Positions 4,025 to 63,877 of a DNA stretch of 64,000 bases are shown one piece after another (the first letter of the stretch is position 1; every line of letters begins with the position of its first letter). The stretch lies in IMG/VR virus record IMGVR_UViG_3300043447_000658, positions 1-64,000 of that record; one strand, 5' to 3'. The notes under the pieces are model-generated. The model saw only the letters and a list, made by a program, of their open reading frames with translations. It had not been told where the DNA came from and made no database searches. The DNA is from an uncultured virus (IMG/VR IMGVR_UViG_3300043447_000658). Its lineage: Duplodnaviria > Heunggongvirae > Uroviricota > Caudoviricetes. The translations under genes and the position numbers were made by a program.

Positions 4025-7000
4025 TTATATAATCTCTTCTAAACTAATCTTAAATTTCTTTCCGTTATTATTATTGATAATATACAAATTTTCTGCACCT
4101 TCCTGAATAGTCCAGTTGCCGGAAGTTCCATCAATGTCATTTCCTTCAGGTTTATTCATATTACTTAAGTGTAAGTCGTTCGTATAAACGTTAGCCCAAC
4201 CTAAAGTTGTTGAACCTAAATTAACCGAGTTGTTACTTAAAGGTAATATACTTCCTCCTGTTGTAAGAGTTCCCGCAAGTTGCATATTACCTGACGTTGC
4301 ATTTAATGATGCTATTGGAACCACACCAATTCTTCCCCAAGTAAATCCTCTTCCTGCATCCCCTGAATTCATTTGAGTTTTAATTGAGTAATCAGTAACA
4401 GTTCCATATTGATAAACACTACTAGAACCCATACTAATTTTATAATTGTCTTCAGACCAAAATCTCAATCCATTACCTTCACCAGGTGTTACGTTGTAAA
4501 CCGAATTTTGGTTAGTTCCGTTAGGTGCACTTCCTGCACTTGATGCATATGACACTGATTGTGAACCAATATTACCCGTGGTAATGGCATCCGTGATTCC
4601 ATATCCCGATATTGTTGTTGGTTTTGATGATACGTTTGCAAATGAAATACCTGTAATGTAACCCGGTCCGTTTGTTAATTGATTAAGGTTAGTTAAGTTA
4701 CCTGAATGATACATCGTCACCCAACTACCCCAAGAACCAGCATCTGCCGACCTCATATATAATCTGTTACCACCCGTATCAAAAAACAATTGTGTGTGAT
4801 AGTTTCCTGGATGTGTGTCTATTTGTAATAATGCACCACCATTATGAACAACTGTTGGTCTATTAGACCATCCTGATGTTGAACCTCTATATAATCCTGT
4901 GGTGTTAAATGCGTTAACATCGATTGTTGCTCTATCTTGATATAATGAATCAGTAATTCCGTATCCACTAAGTGTTGTTGGTTTTGATGAAACACTTGAG
5001 AATGCTATACCTGTTATATATCCACTATTATTAGTGAACTGAGATATATTCATACTGGTTAGTGAACCTGCGGTTGTTGCGTATGATACGGATTGTGAAC
5101 CAATATTACCTGTTGTGATTGCATCTGTTATACCATAACCACTAATTGTAGTAGGTTTTGATGATATTCCACTAAATGTAATTTGAGATGAACCAGATAC
5201 TAAACCTGAAGGAATTCCTGATATTGAACCAAATGATATTTGTGATGAACCAGAAACAATACCTGACGGAATTCCACTTAACGAACCATATGTTATTTGA
5301 GAGGAGCCCGATACTAATCCTGAAGGTACTCCACTAATACTACCGAAAGATATTTGTGATGAACCTGAAACTAAACCACTCGGTATACTACTAATACTTA
5401 AAAACGTGATTTGTGATGAACCTGATACTAAACCTGAAGGAACACCAGTAACGCTACCAAATGTGATTTGAGATGAACCAGACACTAATGCCGGTTTATC
5501 AGTGATTCCATTAAAAGATATTTGACCAGAACCTGATACTACAGAAATTCCATTGAAGAATGCTCCTGAATGTATTGTCGTACCTGCCAATACTTGTGAA
5601 CTACCCGAAACTGTACCTGAAGGTAAAAGTGATATTACTTGTGCAGAACCTGATACGATACCTGCGGGAATACTACTAATAGATGAATACGTAATTTGAC
5701 TTGAACCCGAAACAACACCTGCCGGTAATTGAGCCGAGCCCGACCATACTCCACTACCATTTAAAACTTGACTTGAACCGGACACAACACCTGACGGTAA
5801 TTGTGCACTACCACTCCAAACACCACTTCCATTTAAAACTTGTGATGAACCTGATACTGTTCCTGCAGGTAATTGTGCGGAACCTGACCATACTCCACTT
5901 CCGTTTAATACTTGTGAAGAACCTGAAACAAGCCCTGCTGGTATACTACTAATACTTAAAAAAGTAATTTGTGATGAACCTGAAACTAATGTTGGTTTAT
6001 CTGTTATACCATTGAATGATATTTGTGATGAACCTGAAACCAATGATGGTTTATTTGCAACATTAGAATATTCAACAAATGATGCCGTTGCTACCGTTCC
6101 CAATAAATTAGTTGACACCCCATTGCCGAGTGTTGATATATCAAGATACGCACCTCTAGCATTTCCACCTTGTTCAAAAATTCTTAGTCTATTTTGCCAA
6201 ACATCAATTGTGACACCTTCACCTGAAAGTGTTGTGTTGGTTACCGCTTTACCTAATAAAATTTCTCCTCCTTCATCCCCACCAGTAGCGTTTACTGTTA
6301 ATTTATTACCTCCTGCAACAATTAATGAACCTGTAATTTCTGTGTTTGAATTTATTGAAACTTTTGTTCCTGTGTCGGTAATATTACTATCCCCAATGTG
6401 TTCATCGTTAGTTGATTTAACTAATCTATTGTTTGTTAAATGAATTTCATTACCAATATCATTGTAGGTCTCCGGACCCATTATTAATAAAGCCGAAGTT
6501 ACTGCTGATTGATTTTGGTGGACAAATATCCATTCGTTTTCGGTGGCATCAAATAATAGTGAACCTGATACCTGTGGTGATGAACCACTATCAATAACAC
6601 CAAGACCACCAAATCTAAGACTTGGGTTCTGTGCATTAACTGTTATGATATTATCGGCAATATTTACTATCGATGAACTAATATGTTGAATTGATGATGA
6701 GCCGGCAACAATTAAATTTTCTGAAATATATAATGAGCCGGTAATTGTTTGACTACCTTGGAAAACATTACTACCTGTTGTTGCGTAACTACCTGTTTTA
6801 CCTTCAAGAGAACCTGTTTTAGTTTCTAATGAACCTAATCTATTATTTTGTGCTGTGTTTGTTGAATCATTTGAACCTGTATATGTGTTTAACGCTGCAA
6901 TTGAACCTGTAACACCTTCTATTGAATTTAATCTACTTGTTGCACTTGATGTAAATGAATTCAAACTTGCAGTTGCGGTGTGAATTGCGTTTATATTAGT

Positions 7001-8182
7001 CGTGTTAGATGCTGTATATGAATTTAAACTACTTGTTGAGGTATGAATAGCATTTATATTAGTTGTATTAGAACTTGTATAAGTGTTTAAGCTACCTGTA
7101 GCTGTTTCAATTGATGTTAATCTACTACCAGCACTCGCGGTAAATGTATTCAAACTCGCAGTTGATGTATGAATTGCATTTATATTAGTAGTATTAGACG
7201 CAGTATATGAATTTAAACTACTTGTTGCAGTGTGAATGGAATTTATATTGGTAGTGTTACTACTTGTATATGAATTCAAACTCGCAGTTGAAGTATTCAA
7301 TGCATTTACCGCAGTTGTGTTACTACTTGTGTACGAATTTAACGAACTTGTTGCGGTGTGGATAGCATTTATATTAGTCGCGTTAGAACTTGTATATGAA
7401 TTGATACTTCCTGTGGAAGTTTCTAACGATGTTAATCTACCTTCCGCACTTGAAGAGAATGAATTTAAACTACTTGTAGCAGTATGAATTGCATTTATAT
7501 TTGTGGTGTTAGATGCGGTATATGAATTCAAACTACCGGTTGATGTTTCGATAGAATTTAATCTACCGTCGGCACTTGATGTAAATGAATTCAAACTACC
7601 TGTTGAAGTTTGTAAAGTTCCAATAATTGTGTTGTTTGAACCTGTGTAAGTGTTCAAAGAAGATATGGAGCCTGTAACACCTTCTATTGAATTTAAACGT
7701 CCATTAGCACTTGATGTGAAGGTGTTTAAACTTGATGTGGATGTGTGAATTGCATCAATATTTGTGGTATTGGATGCTGTATATGTATTGATACTTCCTG
7801 TGGAAGTTTCTAACGATGTTAATCTTAAATTAGTACTTGACGTGAAACCATTAATACTACCCGTACTTGTCTCCAAATTAGAGATTCTTGGGTCGATACT
7901 AGCAGTATACGATTGGAAAGTTGTTTCATCCAATTTACCCGTACCGATAGGTTGACCGTTCAGGCTCATCGAACCTGTTATAGATAACGAACCCGTAACT
8001 TTGTGGGTATCTGTTATTGAGTTACCAAATTGGGTAGAACCTGACTCGAAAAGGACTGAAGAACTAACAATTGATATGTGTAATTCATCTGCGGTAAGTC
8101 TCCCTCGGACGGTTAGGTCTTGTTCAAAGTCGGCTGAGCCTGACACGACAAGACCATTCTTGATTTTAAATTCGTTTGCCAT
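4025..8182 (-). CDS. Long tail fibre protein with coiled-coil and SGSSQ repeats and a knob-like domain
   Basis: 1385 aa; Ser/Thr-rich repeats; knob-like segment (FNTTGLYR...QLFFD...LYMRS...WGSW); fibre-type C-terminus WANVYTNDLHLSN...WTIQEG. Confidence 0.8.
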   Translation of the reverse strand: MANEFKIKNGLVVSGSADFEQDLTVRGRLTADELHISIVSSSVLFESGSTQFGNSITDTHKVTGSLSITGSMSLNGQPIGTGKLDETTFQSYTASIDPRISNLETSTGSINGFTSSTNLRLTSLETSTGSINTYTASNTTNIDAIHTSTSSLNTFTSSANGRLNSIEGVTGSISSLNTYTGSNNTIIGTLQTSTGSLNSFTSSADGRLNSIETSTGSLNSYTASNTTNINAIHTATSSLNSFSSSAEGRLTSLETSTGSINSYTSSNATNINAIHTATSSLNSYTSSNTTAVNALNTSTASLNSYTSSNTTNINSIHTATSSLNSYTASNTTNINAIHTSTASLNTFTASAGSRLTSIETATGSLNTYTSSNTTNINAIHTSTSSLNSYTASNTTNINAIHTATASLNSFTSSATSRLNSIEGVTGSIAALNTYTGSNDSTNTAQNNRLGSLETKTGSLEGKTGSYATTGSNVFQGSQTITGSLYISENLIVAGSSSIQHISSSIVNIADNIITVNAQNPSLRFGGLGVIDSGSSPQVSGSLLFDATENEWIFVHQNQSAVTSALLIMGPETYNDIGNEIHLTNNRLVKSTNDEHIGDSNITDTGTKVSINSNTEITGSLIVAGGNKLTVNATGGDEGGEILLGKAVTNTTLSGEGVTIDVWQNRLRIFEQGGNARGAYLDISTLGNGVSTNLLGTVATASFVEYSNVANKPSLVSGSSQISFNGITDKPTLVSGSSQITFLSISSIPAGLVSGSSQVLNGSGVWSGSAQLPAGTVSGSSQVLNGSGVWSGSAQLPSGVVSGSSQVLNGSGVWSGSAQLPAGVVSGSSQITYSSISSIPAGIVSGSAQVISLLPSGTVSGSSQVLAGTTIHSGAFFNGISVVSGSGQISFNGITDKPALVSGSSQITFGSVTGVPSGLVSGSSQITFLSISSIPSGLVSGSSQISFGSISGVPSGLVSGSSQITYGSLSGIPSGIVSGSSQISFGSISGIPSGLVSGSSQITFSGISSKPTTISGYGITDAITTGNIGSQSVSYATTAGSLTSMNISQFTNNSGYITGIAFSSVSSKPTTLSGYGITDSLYQDRATIDVNAFNTTGLYRGSTSGWSNRPTVVHNGGALLQIDTHPGNYHTQLFFDTGGNRLYMRSADAGSWGSWVTMYHSGNLTNLNQLTNGPGYITGISFANVSSKPTTISGYGITDAITTGNIGSQSVSYASSAGSAPNGTNQNSVYNVTPGEGNGLRFWSEDNYKISMGSSSVYQYGTVTDYSIKTQMNSGDAGRGFTWGRIGVVPIASLNATSGNMQLAGTLTTGGSILPLSNNSVNLGSTTLGWANVYTNDLHLSNMNKPEGNDIDGTSGNWTIQEGAENLYIINNNNGKKFKISLEEII
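5160..6040 (-). repeat. Coding tandem repeats of 19 aa (LVSGSSQITFxSISGIPSG) and 23 aa (SGSSQVLNGSGVWSGSAQLPAGx)
   Basis: Visible in the translation; boundaries approximate. Confidence 0.85.
6800..7900 (-). repeat. Coding tandem repeats of about 21 aa (SSLNSYTSSNTTNINAIHTAT), three-heptad coiled coil
   Basis: Visible in the translation and as 63-nt DNA periodicity; boundaries approximate. Confidence 0.85.
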
Positions 8183-41255: not shown

Positions 41256-42371
41256 TTATAGTGGTATATCACCTCCACCTCCAGAAGTACCACAATTTGG
41301 TGCTAGTACATTATATACATACCCATATTGGTCGATTTGAATTAAATAATAGTTAGATGTTCCATCATTATATGTGTTTATTCCCGCAGTTAAAGAGATT
41401 CCATACTTATAACCTTCTACTCCAATGAACACATCATCACCATATTGGTCAATATATACTTGTTGACCCATTAAACCACTTATTGTTGTTGAATTCGCCC
41501 ACAGTGCACCTGTTAAAACATAACCAGGAGAAACACAATATGTTGTATCAATATCTACAACCGGTGAGGCAACATAAAATCTATTTAAAGATGTTAACGT
41601 TGGTGTAGGGGTTGGTGTCGGAGTTGCCGAAACTTGACAATTACCAACAGTTAATTTAATAAGACCTGAACCACCTGTTCCACCATTTTGACCACAATTG
41701 ACCTGTTGACCATATAATTGATATGTTCCCGGTGTTGTAATTGTGTATGTTGAAGGTGAGAAAGTTGGATTATTACTATTAGTTTGTGTTAATATAAACT
41801 CTTGAATATTTGTACCTGTGTTTGTTCTTAAATAAGCATATGCATATCTTGTTCCTGTTCCACTAAAGAAATATCCCGATGGTGTAATTGTTGCTTGATA
41901 TCCACTCGATAATGTAAATGTTGATGACTCAAATCCTGAACAATTACCTGTAGCTTCTAACGTACCACTTAAACAAGAACCAACAGTTGTTGTTGGAGTT
42001 GGTGTAGGGGTCGGAGTTGCGGTTGGTGCCGATACCGTTGCTGTCGGTGTAGGGGTTGGTGTAGGTGTACCTGTTGCGGTAGGTGTTGGGGTAATTGTTG
42101 GTGTAGGTGTAGGTTGTAATGGTGGATTCGTGTTACAAGTAACTGAACTATTATTTAACCATCTACTTCTTAAATTACCACCAGCATCAGGACAAATAGT
42201 CCTAACACTATAATTGTATGTTTGAGCATCAATTAATCCATTAATAGTCACAATAGTATTACTAGTTGAACCAGTTACATATGTCGATGCACTTGATAAC
42301 TTGTACCTATATTCGTAAGTACATCCGTTACAATCTGCCGGTGGTGACCAAGTTATTATTAATTGTGCCAT
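41256..42371 (-). CDS. FN3-like plus Thr-Pro linker modular virion protein
   Basis: LIITW...YEYRYK...TINGL...YNYSVRTIC; two TP linkers; Cys-bounded C-terminal module. Confidence 0.75.
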   Translation of the reverse strand: MAQLIITWSPPADCNGCTYEYRYKLSSASTYVTGSTSNTIVTINGLIDAQTYNYSVRTICPDAGGNLRSRWLNNSSVTCNTNPPLQPTPTPTITPTPTATGTPTPTPTPTATVSAPTATPTPTPTPTTTVGSCLSGTLEATGNCSGFESSTFTLSSGYQATITPSGYFFSGTGTRYAYAYLRTNTGTNIQEFILTQTNSNNPTFSPSTYTITTPGTYQLYGQQVNCGQNGGTGGSGLIKLTVGNCQVSATPTPTPTPTLTSLNRFYVASPVVDIDTTYCVSPGYVLTGALWANSTTISGLMGQQVYIDQYGDDVFIGVEGYKYGISLTAGINTYNDGTSNYYLIQIDQYGYVYNVLAPNCGTSGGGGDIPL

Positions 42372-42395
42372 TTAGTATAAATACGTTTTTTTATT

Positions 42396-43040
42396 TTATC
42401 TATTTGTGTTAGAATGGAAATAACTTTCATTTTCTTTTAAAAAATCCATAACACTAAATGTTGTTATTGTTTCCAGTTTCGGGTTATTTTGAACTTTATT
42501 TATCATTTTATCGGTATGTCTACCATTTACTCCATAATTTCCTTGAACCAAATAGTCAGTCAATAAAATAAAGTTTGAGTCATTTCTTAAATCTTTTTCT
42601 TCAAATTCATTATTAATTTGTTTTTTGGTGTATCCTATTTTTTTGTGAATAATATTGTCTGGTTTAAACTCGTTTTCAACCATTTGGTTATATCTTAAAT
42701 TGGATGGTCTTTGTTCATACCAAGTAACATCTAATAATAGATTAAATTGATTTAATCCCATATCCATCATAAAATTTAAATCTTTTTCTATTTTTTCATC
42801 GGTGTGGTTACCACCAACAAGACATATATCTAAATCCCAAGTGTTATTAAAATCAAATAAAACTCCTCCCATTAAATAAACATCATAATCTTTAATGATT
42901 GTTGATTTAAGATATAAATTAAATAAAAAATCATAAACTTTTTGATACGATGGTCTTGTCCAATGATTTGTTGATTTAACAACTCCTCTTTGAAAAAAAA
43001 TACTATCGTTTAAATTAGCTTCTCTATTAAATGTTCCCAT
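42396..43040 (-). CDS. Pol-beta superfamily nucleotidyltransferase
   Basis: VYLMGG-x8-WDLDI (hGG...DhD) plus a third Asp in LLDV. Confidence 0.7.
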   Translation of the reverse strand: MGTFNREANLNDSIFFQRGVVKSTNHWTRPSYQKVYDFLFNLYLKSTIIKDYDVYLMGGVLFDFNNTWDLDICLVGGNHTDEKIEKDLNFMMDMGLNQFNLLLDVTWYEQRPSNLRYNQMVENEFKPDNIIHKKIGYTKKQINNEFEEKDLRNDSNFILLTDYLVQGNYGVNGRHTDKMINKVQNNPKLETITTFSVMDFLKENESYFHSNTNR

Positions 43041-43054
43041 ATATTTAATTTTTT

Positions 43055-44476
43055 TTAACCGCTGTATCCTCCAGAGCTCCCTCCACTACCTCCACTTCCT
43101 CCACTATCGGTTGGAGTAGGTGCTGGTGTTGTTGGTGGTGTTCCATCACAAGGTGAACATCCTGTATCCAAAATGTTATATTCAGGATATCCATAAACTA
43201 CTGATTTATAATTATCTTTAGCCGTTACCTTCCAACAGAATGTGTTTAAGAATGAATCATTAACTCTAAACGTATCGTTAATTCCAATTGTTGGTAATGT
43301 ATCTGACCATACTGTTACACTATATTGAGAGTTGTCACACCTTACTCCATCTATTTTATATTTTTTAGGTACAGCATTACAGGTTCCACAATCAGTATAT
43401 CCTTGGAACATTGGTTGTCCTAATGCAAATGGTCCCGTATCAGTGATTTGATAACCTGAAAGTGGGTCATTTACAGGGTCAGTAAGAGTAAGTTGAGGGC
43501 CGAGATTAGCATTGATGGTCATACATCTAGCATCACCCATAGGGGTTCCTCCACTATACAATTGTATTCCATATTCATTACCCACTACTAAACTACCAAA
43601 TAATGTTAATGCTATAATATTTTCACCCGTATCGCAAGTTACACCACTATATCCTGTAAGTGTATATCCTGTAAATGGTGGGTCACAAGCCCCACAAGGA
43701 TTATTACCACCTATTGGTGAAATTCCATCTAAATTCACGCTCCAATTTTGGACGTATTGTGTTTCAACCGCAACAATTGATAAACAATTGTTGCCGACAA
43801 GATAAACTGTTCCTTCTGTTAATTGTGTGGTACTTCTACCGATAGCAACTCCTGAATAGTTTTCACCAAAACCACAAGGGTCGTCGTAATCAATACTTAA
43901 CGTTTGTTGTGCCCAATTCGCGGTAGAATACCATTGATTAATTTGTGCCGCATTCATACAAACAGGTATTACTAACGGAGCTCCGAAACCAAAAACAGTT
44001 CTTTCCGTACCTGAATATCTCATATCGTTACAATTACCTAAAGCGTAGTAATAATATGTTGTTGGGTCTTCAGGGTCAACAATATTCAATGTTGGTGTTG
44101 GGGTAGGTGTAGGTGTTGGTACTGCGATAGTTGCTGTAGGTGTTGGGGTAGGTGTAGGTGTTGCGGTAGGTCCCGCCACGGTTGCCGTTGGTGTAGGAGT
44201 AGGAGTTGATGTAGGTGTAGCTGTAGGTGTTATTACTCCTTCACAGGTTACGGTTTGTACACTTGTCCAATCGCTTGAAATTAATTGACATACATTTCTC
44301 ATTTGAAAAACGTATGAATTACCTGTTGTTAAACCTGTAATGACTATAGGTGACGAACCTGAATATGGTATAACCGTAGCGGTATTGATGTTACCACTAC
44401 TAAGAGCGTACCTATATTCTTGAGTACATCCTGTACAACCTGCTGTGTAATTAACTGTTACGCTTGCTACTGCCAT
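43055..44476 (-). CDS. FN3-like plus Thr-Pro linker Cys-rich modular virion protein
   Basis: VTVNY...QEYRY...ITGLTTGNSYVFQMRNVC; TP linker; three Cys-rich modules; Gly/Ser tail. Confidence 0.75.
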   Translation of the reverse strand: MAVASVTVNYTAGCTGCTQEYRYALSSGNINTATVIPYSGSSPIVITGLTTGNSYVFQMRNVCQLISSDWTSVQTVTCEGVITPTATPTSTPTPTPTATVAGPTATPTPTPTPTATIAVPTPTPTPTPTLNIVDPEDPTTYYYYALGNCNDMRYSGTERTVFGFGAPLVIPVCMNAAQINQWYSTANWAQQTLSIDYDDPCGFGENYSGVAIGRSTTQLTEGTVYLVGNNCLSIVAVETQYVQNWSVNLDGISPIGGNNPCGACDPPFTGYTLTGYSGVTCDTGENIIALTLFGSLVVGNEYGIQLYSGGTPMGDARCMTINANLGPQLTLTDPVNDPLSGYQITDTGPFALGQPMFQGYTDCGTCNAVPKKYKIDGVRCDNSQYSVTVWSDTLPTIGINDTFRVNDSFLNTFCWKVTAKDNYKSVVYGYPEYNILDTGCSPCDGTPPTTPAPTPTDSGGSGGSGGSSGGYSG

Positions 44477-44504
44477 TTTTTATTTATAACTTTTTTTGTT
44501 TTTA

Positions 44505-46394
44505 TTATGTGATACTTTCAGGTTCGGTAGGACCACCTCCACTTCCACCACCGCCGAGGTCACCACCTCCGCCGCCACCTCCACCGCTACCTCCTCCTCC
44601 ACCATCAGTTGGTGTTGGTTCAGGCGTTGGGTCTGTATTTGGTACCTCAGTAGTTCCTGGTGTTGGGTTATTTGTTGGTGTAGGTACTGGTGTTTGTGAA
44701 CAACTATTCCAATCGCTCATTACACCATCACTATTTATATAAACAACGTATGTAATTACACTTCCTCCGCCAAATATGATAATAGAATAATATTTGTTTC
44801 CACCATTCACAACACTACCACCACCGCTCACATTGGAATCATATAAAGTGTAAGTAGTTCCCGGTGTAATTGATGATTCGTTTACGTAGAATGATGATGA
44901 ACCATTTTGTGATAAAGGAGAATAACCAAGTTGTGATAGTTGATATGGATATAATCCACACGTTTCTGATTTATGTTGGGTTAATCCTACCGAACTATTG
45001 CTTGACCACGCAGTGGTTATATAAGCGGTTCTATATGTGACACTTGGAGGTGTTGATGTCTCAGGACATCCACCCACATTTGGAACAAGTGTAACACTTA
45101 TTTTATTGCCACCTGGGTCTGTTGTAGTTGAACCTGCAATTACATAATACGTATCGGTTGCACCCTCAACTCTATTTCCTGAACTAAATGTTCCTTGTTG
45201 ATAGCCTGTTGAATATAAATTAGCACCACCGGCACAAGGTGTCAATGTATAATAATATACATCTAATGAACCATCAGTAATTGTTATCTCACTTGAGGTC
45301 GCCAATATAGTACCTGTAGCACTTCCACTTCTAAGTTGTAATTTAAATTTCTCAGTTCCTTCTGTTGATTGGTCTTCCGCCAATGAGAAAGAAAATTCAT
45401 CTCCTGATGCCTCCAATGTAATTGACGATGGGAAATTATTTTGAAAGTCGGATAAATTAACAGTACCAACAGTACTTAATAATGTAATATAAAGTGTTTG
45501 AGGGAATGATATATTCGCGGCAGTTACTGTTGCGGTATATGAACCTCCTCCGTCATCTGCAGTAGTTGGACTGACACTAATTCCGTATGATGGTGTTAAT
45601 ACACAACCTGTTTGGTTAAATGTTGGAACTTCTCCTATTGTTGAAACTGTGAAGTTACCTCCTTGATTCGGTTGTGATACGGTTTTATACCATAGTCCTC
45701 CACCATTGAATAATGTACTTTCATTAATTGTCGAACCTGTATGTAATGATTTACCATTTGTTACAACAGCATCATATAAACTACTATATCCACCACCATC
45801 AACATAAACTGTTCTATTCGTACCTGTACCCGCACACGCTAATTCACCTGTAGACCAACCTAAACCATTATTCGATGTGTCTACATAAATTGTAAACGAT
45901 GAAAATAATGGAGTTGCCGTTGGTGTTGGAGTTGCAGTAGGAGTTGCAGTAGGTCCCGCCACGGTTGCCGTTGGTGTAGGAGTAGGAGTCGCTGTTGGTG
46001 GTATAGCGGTTGCAGTTGGTGTAGGAGTTGGAGTTGCTGTTGGTGCTACCAATCCGACACAAGTAATGCTATTAATTGTTGGTGGATAACAACTATGATA
46101 ACAAACCGCACCTAAACCAACTGGTTGAGGACAACAGTCCATATAAGCAATTGGGTCATTCGTCTCAATATTCTCAATAATATATCTACCTGTTGTTTGG
46201 TCTTCAATTTTAAACCAATAGTTTGAATTAAAATTGATAGTAACCCCACTAATATTTACTGTAGAAGTTCCAGCAGCAAAAGTACCATACAAACTATATC
46301 CACTATTCATTGGATATGGTGATGTTGCCTGTTTGTAATAAACCTTAAATTGGTTCGGCGATACAATGTCGTGCAGTCTAATTACTAATCCCAT
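44505..46394 (-). CDS. Modular Thr-Pro linker virion protein with a Calx-beta-like domain
   Basis: EDQSTEGTEKFKLQL...ITITD Calx-beta-like motif; two Cys-bounded modules; Gly-rich tail. Confidence 0.72.
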   Translation of the reverse strand: MGLVIRLHDIVSPNQFKVYYKQATSPYPMNSGYSLYGTFAAGTSTVNISGVTINFNSNYWFKIEDQTTGRYIIENIETNDPIAYMDCCPQPVGLGAVCYHSCYPPTINSITCVGLVAPTATPTPTPTATAIPPTATPTPTPTATVAGPTATPTATPTPTATPLFSSFTIYVDTSNNGLGWSTGELACAGTGTNRTVYVDGGGYSSLYDAVVTNGKSLHTGSTINESTLFNGGGLWYKTVSQPNQGGNFTVSTIGEVPTFNQTGCVLTPSYGISVSPTTADDGGGSYTATVTAANISFPQTLYITLLSTVGTVNLSDFQNNFPSSITLEASGDEFSFSLAEDQSTEGTEKFKLQLRSGSATGTILATSSEITITDGSLDVYYYTLTPCAGGANLYSTGYQQGTFSSGNRVEGATDTYYVIAGSTTTDPGGNKISVTLVPNVGGCPETSTPPSVTYRTAYITTAWSSNSSVGLTQHKSETCGLYPYQLSQLGYSPLSQNGSSSFYVNESSITPGTTYTLYDSNVSGGGSVVNGGNKYYSIIIFGGGSVITYVVYINSDGVMSDWNSCSQTPVPTPTNNPTPGTTEVPNTDPTPEPTPTDGGGGGSGGGGGGGGDLGGGGSGGGPTEPESIT

Positions 46395-46489: not shown

Positions 46490-47071
46490 TTATACTTGTG
46501 CTCCGCCACCACCGGAACCTCCACAAGAGGAAATAACTTGTAAATCAATTACCGTTCCCATATTATCAACTTTAATAACATAATATGGTTGGTCATTGGT
46601 ATTAGCAGTGTTATCTGAAGAAACCGCATAATAAAAATCTCCACCTATCCAAGGTTCTTGAGTACCATCATATACCATTGTACCTAACATACCAACGATT
46701 GTTGATGAAGAACTGTAGAATAATGCGCTTATTAATTGGTTTTGGTCACAATGTCCGTTATAAGTTGATGATGGGTTACTACGGAAGAATCCATATAATG
46801 GTGGTACTGTTGCTGTAGGTGTTGGGGTAGGTGTTGGAGTTCCTTGAATCACCGCCCAATTTACTGATGTTCCGTTACAAGTACCACCAACTGCGGTAAC
46901 TGTACCTCCTGTCACTGAATCGAGAAATACAATCTCTTTATATGAAGGATATTGCATTTCTGTTTTTGTTACACCCGTGGTTATGTAATTACCAGGGTTA
47001 CCTACTATTGTAAAATTATCAGACAATGTTGATGCTGAAAATGGTCCTGATAAATAAAATCTTGCTAACAT
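46490..47071 (-). CDS. Two-domain Thr-Pro linker virion protein
   Basis: Small beta domain, TP linker, Cys-bounded module, Gly tail. Confidence 0.72.
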   Translation of the reverse strand: MLARFYLSGPFSASTLSDNFTIVGNPGNYITTGVTKTEMQYPSYKEIVFLDSVTGGTVTAVGGTCNGTSVNWAVIQGTPTPTPTPTATVPPLYGFFRSNPSSTYNGHCDQNQLISALFYSSSSTIVGMLGTMVYDGTQEPWIGGDFYYAVSSDNTANTNDQPYYVIKVDNMGTVIDLQVISSCGGSGGGGAQV

Positions 47072-47089: not shown

Positions 47090-47593
47090 TTACTCTCCTG
47101 CCGGAGTTTCTTCTTCCGTTACCTCAGGTAAAATCTCGTTATAGGTTATAACACCATTTGCAATAAATGTGTTATGGTTTTCCACTACTAAGTTATGAAC
47201 TGTTTTAGTTCCTGTAACCTCTTCTTTATCCGTTACTTCAATTTCAATACCATCCGCACCCATCATTTTATCATCAGCAACAACAAAAGTAGTGTCACAT
47301 ACAATCCATCTTTCAGTGTACGCATCACCTTCTGGCGTTTTTTGTCTAACAATATGTTTATGGTCTTCAGATGCGACGATTAAACCATTGTTTATTGAGT
47401 ATACTAATTCAGTTTCAGCTTGTTGTAATTCAACAACAGTACCTACAACTTCTTCAAATACTCCAGCTTCTTGATTTAATTTAATTGATTTAACTTCATC
47501 ACCAACAACAACTTCTTCAATTAATTTTGAAGTTCCGTCAGCCATTGAGATTAATGTTCCTTGGACTAAACATCCTTTTTGATTATTTTTCAT
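47090..47593 (-). CDS. Free-standing Hint (intein-like/BIL-type) domain protein
   Basis: G-CLVQGTLISMADG (block A), ASEDH (block B), VHNLVVENHNTFIANGVITYN (blocks F/G). Confidence 0.85.
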   Translation of the reverse strand: MKNNQKGCLVQGTLISMADGTSKLIEEVVVGDEVKSIKLNQEAGVFEEVVGTVVELQQAETELVYSINNGLIVASEDHKHIVRQKTPEGDAYTERWIVCDTTFVVADDKMMGADGIEIEVTDKEEVTGTKTVHNLVVENHNTFIANGVITYNEILPEVTEEETPAGE

Positions 47594-47650: not shown

Positions 47651-50600
47651 TTAAACTTGTTCAAATTGTGTACAAACTATTTGGCTTCCGGTACAAGGAC
47701 TTACTTGTTCAAGACAAGGACTCATTTCATTTTCTTTACAGAAATATGTTGTTGGTGGTGGAGTCACGCAAGTAGTGTCGTCATATGGTAATACCACAAC
47801 TTCACTAAAGTCTTCACATCCGTTCGCATCTACAATTCTTAAGTAATATCCACCAGGTACTAATCCTGTTACATTGTAACCACCTGTTTGGTTAGTTACA
47901 GGGAATCCAGGATAAACACTACCTCCCGATGTTTCATAAGGGAATGTTGTGTCCTCATATAAATAATACGTGTACGGACCAACTCCACCTGAACCATTTA
48001 ATGTTAATGAACCGTCAGCGTTAAATCCACAACTTGTTGGGTTACTTGTGTTGGTAATTGTTGCAACACAAGGTAGTGGAGTTGCTGTTGGTGTTGGTGT
48101 AGGTGTTGAAGTTGACGTCGGAGTAGGTGTAGGAGTTTCGGTTGGTATCGGTGTATTAGTTGGTGTAGGTGTTGGAGTTGATGTCGGCGTAGGTGTTGGT
48201 GTACTAGTTGGTGTACTAGTAGGTGTAGGTGTTGGAGTTGATGCAATAACTATCACCCCAATTCCAAATTCACAAACCGGAGTTGCAGTTGGTGTTGGAG
48301 TTGCAGTGGCCGTTGGTGTAGGTGTACTCGTTGGTGTGTTAGTTGGTGTAGGTGTAGGTGTACCTGTGGCAGTTGGTGTAGGTGTACTTGTAGGTGTTGG
48401 CGTTGGTGTATTAGTCGGTGTGCTAGTAGGTGTAGGAGTCGGTGTTGACGCGATAATAATTGTTCCAATTCCAAATTCACATATTGGAGTTGCCGTTGGT
48501 GTCGGTGTGCTAGTTGGTGTACTAGTTGGTGTTGATGTCGGAGTTGCAGTTGCAGTTGGTGTTGGTGTAGCAGTCGCTGTTGGTGTTGGTGTGTTAGTAG
48601 GTGTAGGTGTTGGAGTTGATGTGATAATAATTGTTCCAATTCCAAATTCACAAACCGGTGTAGGTGTTGGAGTTACAGTTGGTGTATTGGTAGGAGTACT
48701 AGTTGGTGTACTAGTTGGAGTGGGTGTTGATGTCGGTGTCGGAGTTGGTGTTGGTGTAGATGCAATAATCGTTACTCCAATTCCAAATTCACAAACCGGA
48801 GTTGGTGTAGGTGTCGGAGTTGGTGTAGGAGTACTAGTAGGTGTATTAGTTGGTGTTGGTGTAGGTGTCGGAGTTGGTGTAGATGCAATAACCACCACTC
48901 CAATACCGAAATCACAAACAGGTGTAGGAGTTGGAGTTGGGGTCGGAGTTGGTGTACTCGTAGGTGTTGGTGTAGGGGTCGGAGTTGATGCAATAATGTT
49001 AACACCTATGTTAAAATCACAAACAGGTGTAGGAGTTGGAGTTGGTGTAGATGTAGGTGTTGGAGTCGGTGTTGAAGCTATAATAGTAACCCCTACATTA
49101 AAGTCACAAACAGGCGTCGGTGTTGGCGTTGGTGTGCTAGTAGGTGTAGGAGTTGGGGTTGATGATACTAAAATTACACCGATATTAAAGTTACAAACAG
49201 GAGTTGGGGTAATTGTTGGTGTCGGTGTAGGTGTACCTGTTGCGGTAGGTGTTGGGGTAATTGTTGGAGTTGCAGTTGGTGGTATAGGTGTTGCAGTTGG
49301 TGTTGGAGTTGCAGTTGGTGTTGGAGTTGATGTTGGTGTTGGTGTTGGCGTACCTGTGGCAGTTGGTGTTGGAGTTGATGTTGGTGTTGGTGTACTAGTT
49401 GGGGTAGGAGTACTGGTAGGTGTTGGTGTCGGCGTACCTGTTGGAGTTGGGCTCGGTGTAGGTGTTGGGCTCGGTGTAGGGGTTGGGGTTGGTGTGGTAT
49501 CTTCTGCAATATATGACCTTTGTGTATTTGGTCCTGCTTGTACTTGCGTACAATTACCATCAGTACAACCTGTTAATCTTAATAAACTTTCAACACTCGG
49601 TACGTTATCACATTCATAACCTAAATAATATTGTTGAGTATCAATATCTAAACACTCAAATTTATTTCCTGTAAATGGACTAATGAATGCTGAATCATTT
49701 TTAGTTGACACAACAATTCTATTAATACCACTTGAAGGTCCATTAAATAAGATTGTATCTGAATTGATTGAAGTTCCTGATGTTACTAATGTGTAGTAAA
49801 TTCCTCTATTACAATAATTTAAATCAACACTTGTTACCTCAATAGGAAAACCGTATTGACTTATCATAAAGTCTCCACTCTGAAAATGTCCTTCAGGATA
49901 TTCACAACAAGGTACTTCAGGTTGTTCAGGTCTTACAAATAAATCTTCAGGATATTTGTATGTAAAATGATATGGAACAGTTTCTAAGTATTCATTAATG
50001 TTAGTGTATACCAAAACTTTACTTGTTGGTAACACTTCAAACTCACCATTAATAACATCTTTCTTAATTGAACTTAAACATTCTTTTCTTACTACTTTTA
50101 TTAATGAATAATCAAAGGTAAATTGATAACCGTTACTCTCAACGAACTTAAACATTTCCGTTGGAAGTAAATTACAATCTTTTTGACTTATACTTAAAAT
50201 CGTGTCACCTATTTCAATATCTTCGATTGATGTCTCAACAACTCCACCAGATGATAGAGTACTTTGTAGTCCTTGCCAAGTTGTTGGAACTGACCCTGAA
50301 ATATATTTGTAAATTTCGGTCCCTTTCTTTATACCATAATCGAAAGATGTTTTGTATTGAACTTTTGGATTTATAGTATAACCACTTACTTCATCAGAAA
50401 TTTTAACTATCTTTTGTTGTAATCCTTCAATTCTAAATTTTTGTTCACAGTTTGCGGCGTCGGAAACAATAATATCATATACGTCTGTTTCTTTAACATT
50501 AGGGATGATATATGTACAAGTAACTAACTGTAAATCGTCAGCATATATTGCTCTCTTAATTGGTTTAGGGTCATTGATTTCAATAAAATCACAATCAGTA

Positions 50601-62047: not shown

Positions 62048-63877
62048 TTAATATGTAGCCGAAGTTAAAGTTTTTACTCTTACTTTAATATCACTTTGTG
62101 GGAATCGGATTTGACAAATTTGATTTGATTTCATATATATGGTTGAATCAAATTGTAATATTTCTTTTGTAATATTATCCTTGTAAGCTTGGGATATTTC
62201 GGCTGATGAATATTTTCCACCGATTTTGTTGAATACTCTAACATCCACGACGTTCACAACCCCAGTTACGTTACCAATTTCTCTCATTAAGTCACCAACA
62301 AACAACGGGTCACCCATTTTTCTTTTGTCGATAGCGAAGAAGTTTGTTACAGTATTAACAGTTTCTTTTAATACATCACTTTGACTTTCGTTTTTATTTA
62401 CCACTAAATCAACCTCTAAACCTAAATCGATAACCTCACCACTCATAATGTCTAAGAAGTCATTTAACATTCTAAATTTAGACAAATAGTTCAATACGTT
62501 ATTCTTAAGTGTGTTAGATACAATATCGGTTAAATTACCTTCACTATCGTATGATAATAATTTAATTCTCACTTTGTTGTCTTCTTCCATCACACTAACT
62601 TTAGCCGGTGCTCCGTAAGTTGATGGCATCGTTTCAATTAAAGATTTGTAGTCATTTAATGTTACCGCTCTATTTTGTGCTGCAAAGTTATATGCAACCA
62701 TATTTCTAATTTCCTCAATAGTCGGTGAATCGGCTCCACCCACTGCAGGTGTTATATTTGTAACTCTTAATGATTGATATACTTGGTCATTTATTGTTGA
62801 ATTTGGACCATTCAATGCAAAATCAATTGTATCTATCGATGTTATCACATTAACCCCGAGATTTGATTCTTTACCACCACCTATACGATATTTGATGAAT
62901 AATGTGGTATTTGCTCTCGGTATGTTACCCAATGAGTTGTTATTAAGGAAAGTTGCAATATTAACTTTCATTGTTCCGTTCATATAGTTATCCAAATTAT
63001 CCATTGGGTCTACATTTCCTGAACCGAAAGTAACACTGAAATAACCTTCAGGTGTATACTCAGTAATGAATTTATTATCAACTCTAAGGTAATCACCCGA
63101 TTTAAAATTATCAGTATCTGAAATTGTTGTTGAGTCTTCAATAAAAACTCTATCTTCCATTAATGACTTAACCTCATACCATTTATTCCCGTTTGTGAAT
63201 TCATCATATGTAGGATTACTTGCATAGTTTGTTCCTGATTTATGAATCACACTAACAACACCCAATACGTTTTTCTCAGGTAAGTATAATTTTAAGAATG
63301 GTTTTTGGTCAACCTCGTTAATAACTCTTCTATAAATCTTAGTTGTTCCATTTACAACCGCCTCTCTTTTGGTGATTGTATATGATATCAATTTACTATT
63401 GTTATCAAAATTTGGAATCTTTAATCTATTAGGTTCACCTTTACTATTGAAAGGATTTGAAAAATCGATGTCCTCAAGAGTTTCAAATATCTGTCCTCCA
63501 CCCGAAACTTGTGCACCTGCTTTTAAAATACCCTCATATCTTTCATCGTCTTTATCACCCCTAACAGGAACGTTAATTGAGAAGTCACATAATGCGACTG
63601 ATGGTCTTAAACCGGGTAGTCTAATACCATAAGTTTTTGCAATATGAAATAATGATTGTCTTTGTTGTGCAAAGTCCAACATCGTTTCCTGCCAAACTCT
63701 ATCTATATGGAAATGTAAGTTATCAGCAACCGCAGCATTTAAATCAAGTAATACTGAATAAATTGATGCATCGTTAAAGTTACTTATTAATTCTGGATAA
63801 TACTTTTTAGTTAATGAAACTAATTCGTCTCTTAAACCTGCAAAATCTCTTGTTGCGTATGATATTTCTTTTGCCAT
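62048..63877 (-). CDS. Baseplate wedge subunit, T4 gp6/baseplate J-like
   Basis: RDFAGLRDEL, FGSG, YRIGGG..SN, GGAD, AQNRAVTLNDY motifs. Confidence 0.88.
   Translation of the reverse strand: MAKEISYATRDFAGLRDELVSLTKKYYPELISNFNDASIYSVLLDLNAAVADNLHFHIDRVWQETMLDFAQQRQSLFHIAKTYGIRLPGLRPSVALCDFSINVPVRGDKDDERYEGILKAGAQVSGGGQIFETLEDIDFSNPFNSKGEPNRLKIPNFDNNSKLISYTITKREAVVNGTTKIYRRVINEVDQKPFLKLYLPEKNVLGVVSVIHKSGTNYASNPTYDEFTNGNKWYEVKSLMEDRVFIEDSTTISDTDNFKSGDYLRVDNKFITEYTPEGYFSVTFGSGNVDPMDNLDNYMNGTMKVNIATFLNNNSLGNIPRANTTLFIKYRIGGGKESNLGVNVITSIDTIDFALNGPNSTINDQVYQSLRVTNITPAVGGADSPTIEEIRNMVAYNFAAQNRAVTLNDYKSLIETMPSTYGAPAKVSVMEEDNKVRIKLLSYDSEGNLTDIVSNTLKNNVLNYLSKFRMLNDFLDIMSGEVIDLGLEVDLVVNKNESQSDVLKETVNTVTNFFAIDKRKMGDPLFVGDLMREIGNVTGVVNVVDVRVFNKIGGKYSSAEISQAYKDNITKEILQFDSTIYMKSNQICQIRFPQSDIKVRVKTLTSATY

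Follow-up and report, generated by a model that had tools for sequence, protein, structure and literature searches.

Why should two neighbouring proteins of a phage each begin with an FN3 (fibronectin type III) domain that lacks its first strand, and a third protein encoded beside them carry two peptides that resemble this very strand? The question is raised by a stretch of 64,000 nucleotides, hereafter the window, with which an uncultured virus record of 72.8 kb begins (IMG/VR IMGVR_UViG_3300043447_000658, Caudoviricetes; CheckV completeness estimate 22%). The truncated domains open two proteins of 371 and 473 amino acids (aa), and the peptides lie in a protein of 629 aa that we call the carrier. 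Our analysis suggests, with a probability that we put at roughly 0.55, that the products of the three genes belong to a single fibre or decoration assembly of a T4-like phage and that they are joined by a split FN3 domain.

An open reading frame (ORF) check returned the coordinates and sequences of the three proteins just as the initial annotation had given them, and its reading that both smaller proteins, of 371 aa and 473 aa, open with FN3 strand B and have no A strand agrees with the upstream stop codons, with Pfam, with AlphaFold2 (AF2) and with structure alignment. The 371 aa gene has an in-frame TAA at codon -1 and the 473 aa gene has one at codon -2, so that an N-terminal extension of either protein is impossible; a mis-called start is ruled out by these stops and by the retention of the start in 10 of the 150 listed homologues and in all loci. 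In 10 of these 150 the same B-strand start falls at the protein's own residue 1-4, and the domain is followed by a Pro/Thr linker and by unrelated C-terminal domains. Residues 4-61 of the 371 aa protein match positions 16-71 of the 84 in the Pfam fn3 profile (PF00041; E 1.3e-4), with a score of 22.5 bits that lies below the 25-bit cut-off and one of 25.6 bits, above it, in a six-frame search. Homologues at related loci (here and below, L numbers are loci, P numbers proteins and G numbers whole records) score 35.2 bits from profile position 14 (L029), 25.6 bits (L012) and 18.9 bits (L011), and the FN3 bodies of four lineages begin at profile position 14-16. The N-terminus of the 473 aa protein has no Pfam fn3 match; it aligns with that of the 371 aa protein from residue 1 onwards (36% identity, E 0.004).

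The predicted structure has the same limits. AF2 models residues 1-85 of the 371 aa protein with six strands and a mean predicted local distance difference test score (pLDDT) of 82.5, from a 16-row alignment; a seven-strand sandwich (A, B, C, C', E, F, G) within one chain was not found. VIA-align superposes the model on solved FN3 domains with Z of 9.4-10.2 and a root-mean-square deviation of 1.7-4.7 Å over 72-84 residues, and residue 1 of the model falls at residue 15-19 of solved single-domain FN3 chains. Against complete Cys-type FN3 repeats, in a template made from only 11 repeats of 9 proteins, hhalign matches columns 15-90 of 92 with a probability of 99.3%, and the segment that the A-less domain leaves unmatched is CxxPxGLxASxxxx. 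The domain thus has the makeup of an acceptor in donor-strand systems, an immunoglobulin-like (Ig-like) fold without one strand, the missing strand being the N-terminal A. A search for it among 1.84 billion representatives gave 1,109 matches, mostly internal repeats of giant multi-FN3 proteins. To judge from these comparisons, strand-A truncation is a trait of the family. Supply of strand A by the segment that follows strand G, as in a circular permutation, appears unlikely, residues 79-85 being low-confidence coil that would lie at the wrong pole of the domain.

What, then, of the missing strand? The stretch 46059-46136 encodes residues 87-112 of the carrier, CCPQPVGLGAVCYHSCYPPTINSITC. AF2 (12-row alignment) gives the carrier a beta-sandwich over residues 1-80, with block-mean pLDDT of 72-94, whose Foldseek neighbours are all FN3 or monobody chains, a weak likeness with a best E of 0.014. 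For residues 80-121, the region of the peptides, pLDDT is below 50, so that the prediction does not back a reading of the peptides as pieces of the carrier's N-terminal domain; AF2 does not fold them onto it. We then scored their likeness to strand A with a matrix built from 180 Cys-led FN3 repeats of 48 unrelated giant proteins and registered on the Cys, a general A-strand matrix being swamped by Pro/Thr linkers. Of the 22,154 positions scored, which come from 56 proteins of this phage, the best is peptide 1 (16.4 bits); peptide 2 is ninth overall (9.1 bits) and third among the 227 positions that start with Cys. Peptide 1 has all five conserved residues of CxxPxGLxAS, and peptide 2 resembles A strands that stand in cis in proteins of the same phage group, CSAPTLNSVT (P0165) and CGAPTISSVT (P0099). 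These results support the view that the peptides and the A-less bodies are homologous to two parts of one FN3 domain. The next-best matrix scores without a leading Cys belong to a 1385 aa protein (4025-8182, minus strand), which has at least 10 copies of an 11-residue motif such as SG[VI]PSGLVSGS, spaced by about 19-24 residues; the motif is probably a fibre repeat.

Relatives of the carrier share its N-terminal domain and have variable C-termini, and the segment downstream of the domain falls into five classes. In the first, two A-like peptides are adjacent (the window, L004, L005, L041, L011, L056, L057 and P0160-P0166). In the second, Pro/Thr linkers separate the A-like peptides: L051 has CEVPTGISAVC and CEVPTDITAYC, L048 has CPQPEDINAVC and two identical CNPPTGVSAIC units, and L049 has three peptides. 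An 11-residue peptide isolated between long flexible linkers cannot belong to a globular domain, which argues that these peptides are autonomous units. The third class, L012, combines CTAPLILSVEC with a second strand that is not A-like, and the fourth (L007, L008 and L009) has a Cys-rich segment. The fifth has a single peptide that is not A-like, such as CYDTIDFDLSAQC (L013-L022, L027, L028, L030, L031 and L034-L036) or the CDFSGG type (L023, L024 and L026), with matrix scores of -10 to -15.

These classes go with the presence of A-less FN3 genes. Among whole records, two such genes were found in each of G004 and G005, one in each of G001, G002 and G003, and none in G006 (76% complete), G007 (92% complete) or G008, all three of which have class-5 carriers. 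A tree of the 718-type protein, which is encoded next to the A-less FN3 genes, has 20 non-identical rows, 13 with an A-less FN3 gene and 7 without. The carrier gene is reached in 9 of the 13 FN3-bearing loci, and 8 of these 9 have a Cys-led peptide that scores 8.8-17.2, the exception being L007; in the 7 rows without an FN3 gene the carrier peptides score -10 to -15. Loci without an FN3 gene do contain background matches of 10-12.6 bits, which to judge by their flanks lie inside folded regions of other proteins, and hence only the highest matrix scores are distinctive. In L029, from a 334 kb record, the peptide of the 629-type protein is not A-like, and a strand scoring 16.3 bits (CNPPINLTAV), followed by a linker, stands instead on a different protein of 423 aa, directly upstream of a divergent 500 aa A-less FN3 protein (L029:12216-15013, plus strand). 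Gene order and matrix score taken together, the donor-like strand has here moved to another carrier and still adjoins its putative acceptor, which is the most telling case.

How could the two halves form one joint? We propose that the carrier consists of an FN3-like N-terminal anchor, two detached FN3 first strands, a flexible Pro/Thr linker and distal domains of its own, and that the FN3 bodies of the 371 aa and 473 aa proteins, which comprise strands B to G, would have an open B-strand edge and a partly open core. Each body would take one carrier peptide as its missing strand A, a case of donor-strand complementation in trans. The anchor domain, the first body on peptide 1 and the second body on peptide 2 would then be aligned like a tandem FN3 array, and the three-residue spacer between the peptides would resemble the short links of such arrays. 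The product would be a short rod of FN3-like beads with three linker arms branching from it, each arm ending in distal domains of a different kind. We infer the binding itself, the pairing of peptides with proteins, the stoichiometry, the disulfides, where on the virion the proteins sit and that their distal domains are adhesive. The original proposal of strand donation in trans is supported in that the halves are homologous, conserved and co-occurring; the strand counts and the double disulfide pattern do not support it.

The cysteines deserve closer attention. They lie as first described, at C60 and C79 in the 371 aa protein and at C63 and C78 in the 473 aa protein, both of which also have a CxxC at 14/17; the peptide segment of the carrier has five cysteines, not four. 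Among 1,508 complete FN3 repeats of giant proteins, a Cys before strand A and one after strand F occur together in 372, the former alone in 9, the latter alone in 102 and neither in 1,025. This co-occurrence would fit a disulfide within the domain, and if the two cysteines are paired in complete repeats, then the post-F Cys of the A-less domains would have lost its usual partner in cis. In most lineages the post-F Cys is still present in the A-less bodies, and the pre-A Cys stands on the peptides. In the proposed joint these two would form an inter-chain disulfide that replaces the intra-chain one usual in the subfamily, and the bond would form once the particle is outside the cell. The initial annotation went further and had each strand locked by two intermolecular disulfides. 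The co-occurrence of pre-A and post-F cysteines speaks for part of this, and L012, where the FN3 domain has only post-F and post-G cysteines and the peptide is flanked by two, fits the two-disulfide scheme; however, the flanking cysteines are not all conserved. P0161-P0163 have V or Y where the Cys ahead of peptide 2 would stand, a closing Cys is missing from the peptide of L029, and P0088 has no post-F Cys. (A search of viral contigs did not find the locus of P0161, one unrelated locus, L067, being returned, and gave none for P0088.) The scheme is thus not general, which makes one inter-chain disulfide, between the pre-A and post-F cysteines, plausible and leaves the double lock unproven.

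Together with these departures from the cysteine scheme, several observations weigh against a split joint. AF2 folds the A-less domain confidently alone, so that a donor may not be needed, and both AF2 models rest on shallow alignments (12 and 16 rows). Measured against a background pooled over all loci, peptide 1 scores 14.0 bits and peptide 2 scores 4.7 bits, which makes peptide 2 the weaker case. Two changes suffice to explain the distribution of A-less FN3 over the 718-type tree, and the co-occurrence therefore rests on few independent events. In L007, L008 and L009 an A-less FN3 is present and the Cys-rich carrier segment scores only -0.5 and -10.8. In FN3-free phages a segment that is not A-like, bracketed by cysteines, occupies the position of peptide 1, so that the carrier's N-terminal domain itself may account for part of the motif. 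Finally, the number of orphan strands had been expected to track the number of A-less FN3 genes, and it does not: the ratio of peptides to genes is 2:2 in the window, L004, L005 and L041, 2:1 in L011, L051, L056 and L057, and 3:1 in L049. These ratios would allow a carrier to bind the same FN3 protein several times over, but they do not fit a rule of one each. There is an anecdotal hint of pair specificity in that the peptides tend to be alike in single-FN3 lineages (6 of 9 inner positions in L051 and 4 of 9 in L011), as compared with 1 of 9 in the window with its two paralogues. Assigning peptide 2 to the 473 aa protein by way of FN3 bodies that have their strand in cis proved too weak, with local scores of 44 versus 29 for P0099 and 33 versus 31 for P0165, whose alignment with the 473 aa N-domain falls off the homologous register.

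Some of these points would be expected if the A-less FN3 were a self-sufficient six-stranded anchor that docks elsewhere, for example on the 718 aa protein or a baseplate protein, and if the carrier peptides were unrelated disulfide-closed loops that stiffen or space the linker. AF2 folds the domain by itself, the counts of peptides and FN3 genes do not match, and the L007 peptides are not A-like. Moreover, the A-less FN3 gene lies immediately upstream of a 718-type gene at every locus examined, and the Cys-x9-Cys spacing could close a loop inside one peptide. What such an anchor leaves unexplained is that the peptides match exactly the strand missing next door, that A-like peptides occur only alongside A-less FN3, even where the carrier has changed as in L029, and that the bodies retain a post-F Cys normally partnered by the pre-A Cys. 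We regard this explanation as possible, though unlikely.

A second way to do without one strand per body would be to satisfy the B-strand edge otherwise, either by edge-to-edge pairing of FN3 bodies into homo- or heterodimers or by the binding of two adjacent peptides to one body as a hairpin, with one FN3 protein per carrier. AF2 does draw carrier residues 95-100 and 103-109 as a hairpin, at low confidence, and two adjacent peptides accompany a single FN3 gene in L011, L056 and L057. The hairpin is nonetheless impossible for L048, L049 and L051, where long Pro/Thr linkers separate the peptides. As for edge pairing, N-terminal strand swapping between FN3 molecules is reported for PDB 4m6a; dimerisation, however, leaves the co-occurrence with A-like peptides unexplained. 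We consider either variant decidedly improbable.

Conservation bears on whether the peptides have a function at all. Between the window and P0160 the peptide segment has 34 of 38 identities and the N-domain 50 of 80; for P0165 the figures are 24 of 38 and 42 of 105. Down to 40-50% identity, conservation of the peptide segment equals or exceeds that of the folded N-domain. Over the 33 codons of the segment, synonymous and nonsynonymous changes relative to the window stand at 9:2 (L004), 4:0 (L005), 3:1 (L041) and 5:3 (L063), in comparisons that are not independent of one another and whose N-domain columns are unreliable at insertions and deletions. That the peptides are functionless remnants of FN3 domains, decayed or cut by recombination in a linker-rich and shuffling-prone cluster, might be suggested by the clear shuffling of C-terminal modules between anchors and by the C-x-x-(A/P)-P-T end of the A-less FN3, which resembles the beginning of one more strand A passing over into the linker, and yet it is scarcely credible for a segment that is conserved at least as well as a folded domain, in which synonymous changes dominate and which in L048 is duplicated as an exact unit.

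The features on which the split joint rests are collected in Table 1.

Table 1. Features of the three proteins and of the gene between them, in window coordinates.
Feature	Coordinates	Strand	Basis
371 aa protein gene (A-less FN3, Pro/Thr linkers, C-terminal domains without family match)	41256-42371	-	ORF; Pfam fn3 only
A-less FN3 of 371 aa protein, residues 1-80, strands B to G, Cys 14, 17, 60, 79	42132-42371	-	Pfam, AF2, VIA-align, hhalign
214 aa intervening gene	42396-43040	-	no Pfam or PHROG match
473 aa protein gene (A-less FN3, Pro/Thr linkers, C-terminal domain)	43055-44476	-	ORF
A-less FN3 of 473 aa protein, residues 1-79, Cys 14, 17, 63, 78	44240-44476	-	alignment to 371 aa domain; own hidden Markov model, E 2e-30
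629 aa carrier gene	44505-46394	-	ORF; family of 17 proteins, N-terminus conserved, C-termini variable
Pro/Thr-rich linker after the peptides, carrier residues 116-162	45909-46049	-	
Orphan A-strand-like peptide 2, CYPPTINSITC, carrier residues 102-112	46059-46091	-	A-strand matrix; likeness to A strands in cis
Orphan A-strand-like peptide 1, CPQPVGLGAVC, carrier residues 88-98	46101-46133	-	A-strand matrix, hhalign consensus
Carrier N-terminal beta-sandwich, residues 1-79, weakly FN3-like, presumed anchor	46158-46394	-	AF2, Foldseek

The genomic setting is that of a tail. The long genes of the window are all on the minus strand, and a baseplate wedge gene at 62048-63877 (phrog_219, E 9e-20) shares the strand of the fibre genes, which lie downstream of it. 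Replication genes (an SbcC-like nuclease, a RuvC-like resolvase and a primase) flank the region on both sides, and outside the window a ribonucleotide reductase, a helicase and a recombinase were read by eye; with these wedge and replication genes around it, the region belongs to the tail module of a large myovirus. Among isolated phages, those with the most similar wedge protein infect Flavobacterium (28.9% identity), which makes a Bacteroidota host plausible.

Five successive proteins (2038, 193, 629, 473 and 371 aa) contain Pro/Thr-rich linkers, and the order of the cassette is kept in relatives: a 2038-type gene, a Hint-like gene, a 193-type gene, a 629-type gene, one or two A-less FN3 genes, sometimes accompanied by the 214 aa gene, and a 718-type gene. 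A search of phage records with the 718 aa protein gave no match. The 214 aa protein is probably not part of the FN3 joint; a protein atlas gives a nucleotidyltransferase-like lead (feature score 0.93-0.94), which is a lead only. Its gene stands directly upstream of an A-less FN3 gene in L005, L011, L037-L039, L044, L050, L052, L059 and L060, and it is absent from L004 and L041. The Hint-like gene encodes a free-standing Hint- or intein-like protein of 167 aa (47090-47593, minus strand), whose Pfam Hint-family matches are all below cut-off (best E 2.9e-4), and it is kept between the 2038-type and 193-type genes in L004, L005, L041, L048-L051 and L064. On the other strand, a Gly/Val-rich ORF of 549 aa (47970-49619, plus strand) and several Gln/His/Leu-rich ORFs are frame artefacts of the repeats that encode Pro and Thr; short tandem DNA repeats are numerous in the region 47970-49619, where the GC skew is +0.425.

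A different kind of strand recurs in the 2038 aa protein, where residues 1524-1842 (48242-49198, minus strand) contain eight tandem hydrophobic 12-mers, PVC[DE]F[GN]IG[VT]..I[AT]S, with Pro/Thr linkers of varying length between them. They score -3.6 to -4.2 on the A-strand matrix and hence represent another strand type; similar strands occur in a 559 aa protein of L011 (LDCSFDV...) and, in L023-type carriers, behind the N-domain. Their role may be to dock other anchor domains or to clasp chains together.

Distal domains are clearly exchanged between anchors within this gene group. The C-terminal domain of the 473-type proteins recurs behind 629-type anchors in P0161, P0162, P0165 and L050, and such shuffling of distal domains between anchor types fits a design with exchangeable tips. 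The C-terminal domains of the 193 aa protein (46490-47071, minus strand) and the 371 aa protein (41256-41620, minus strand) may be related, with 29% identity over 104 residues (E 0.071), and a similar C-terminus ends the L005 carrier and P0099, which suggests one distal module on three different anchors. Enzyme-like or carbohydrate-related modules stand behind the same anchors in P0164, P0167 and L012: P0164 has PF02449, by the precomputed annotation of the search tool, and the A-less FN3 protein of L012 (L012:12283-13215) has Fib_succ_major behind its FN3 (E 1e-22). A fused protein in which a 629-type N-domain runs straight into an FN3 body was found neither among the 167 stored proteins nor in the loci.

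More generally, and much more tentatively, the whole cassette (the 2038 aa, Hint-like 167 aa, 193 aa, 629 aa, 473 aa and 371 aa proteins) might form a modular plug-and-socket fibre. Its Pro/Thr stalks would carry detached beta-strands as sockets, on which the N-terminal beta-sandwiches of separate proteins would dock; the split FN3 domains would be natural, possibly orthogonal, disulfide-locking tag and catcher pairs with one peptide per paralogue, the eight strands of the 2038 aa stalk (PVC[DE]F[GN]IG..I.S) would be a second type of socket, and the result would be a branched bottle-brush of exchangeable host-binding or enzymatic tips. We think this wider scheme doubtful.

What would a split FN3 joint mean? 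If the proposal is true, a single small domain put together from the products of two genes is what phages use to make branched fibres, and distal binding or enzyme modules can be swapped between anchors with the attachment chemistry untouched. It would also explain the conserved, N-terminally truncated FN3 domains at the start of many phage proteins. For annotation there is a warning in it, namely that short conserved peptides within Pro/Thr linkers that pass for disordered can be functional parts.

How does such a joint compare with known systems? In the chaperone-usher pili (Fim, Pap, Caf1) an incomplete Ig-like subunit is completed by a strand of another polypeptide, giving very stable non-covalent fibres, and the proposed phage joint likewise completes an incomplete Ig-like sandwich with the strand of another polypeptide; donor-strand complementation would thereby reach beyond bacterial pili, to virus particles as well as to the FN3 fold. 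In the pili, however, it is the C-terminal G strand that is missing, the following subunit donates its N-terminal extension, and a dedicated chaperone and usher take part, whereas in the phage the missing strand would be the N-terminal A of an FN3 domain, the donors would be internal, two or three per carrier and set in Pro/Thr linkers, and a disulfide would provide the lock. A phage particle would assemble in the cytoplasm, and no chaperone or usher family is among the Pfam and PHROG matches of the 30 window proteins scanned. That the putative donors are internal, tandem and embedded in linkers implies branching.

The type V pili of Bacteroidota (FimA, Mfa1) are reported to join their subunits by protease-mediated strand exchange (PMC13655056, PMC9046445), and this is strand exchange in the very phylum that is the plausible host of this phage. 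Type V pilins reportedly have a different fold, lose an N-terminal strand to a protease and polymerise head to tail, whereas the phage joint would use the FN3 fold, has nothing about it that suggests proteolysis and would give a short branched unit rather than a polymer. The fold found in the window is FN3, and no pilin family is among the Pfam matches of its proteins. Closer in fold is an engineered consensus FN3 with N-terminal beta-strand swapping (PDB 4m6a; related PMC4330816), in which strand A reportedly leaves its own domain and completes another FN3 molecule. That case is reported to be a symmetric swap of complete engineered domains in a crystal, and the phage case would be a split domain with separate genes for donor and acceptor. 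Donor strands or split FN3 domains in phage particles were not found in the literature by title or abstract.

A last likeness is with a laboratory tool. SpyCatcher was engineered from the CnaB2 domain, and SpyTag is a strand peptide that locks into it by an isopeptide bond. There, too, an Ig-like domain that has been truncated is completed by a short strand peptide, and the phage joint, if covalently locked, would be a natural tag and catcher pair. Its split would be natural rather than engineered, its fold FN3 rather than CnaB2, and any lock a disulfide in place of the isopeptide bond. If the proposal holds, such natural pairs, a peptide of about 11 residues and a domain of about 80, would be candidate tools for protein ligation.

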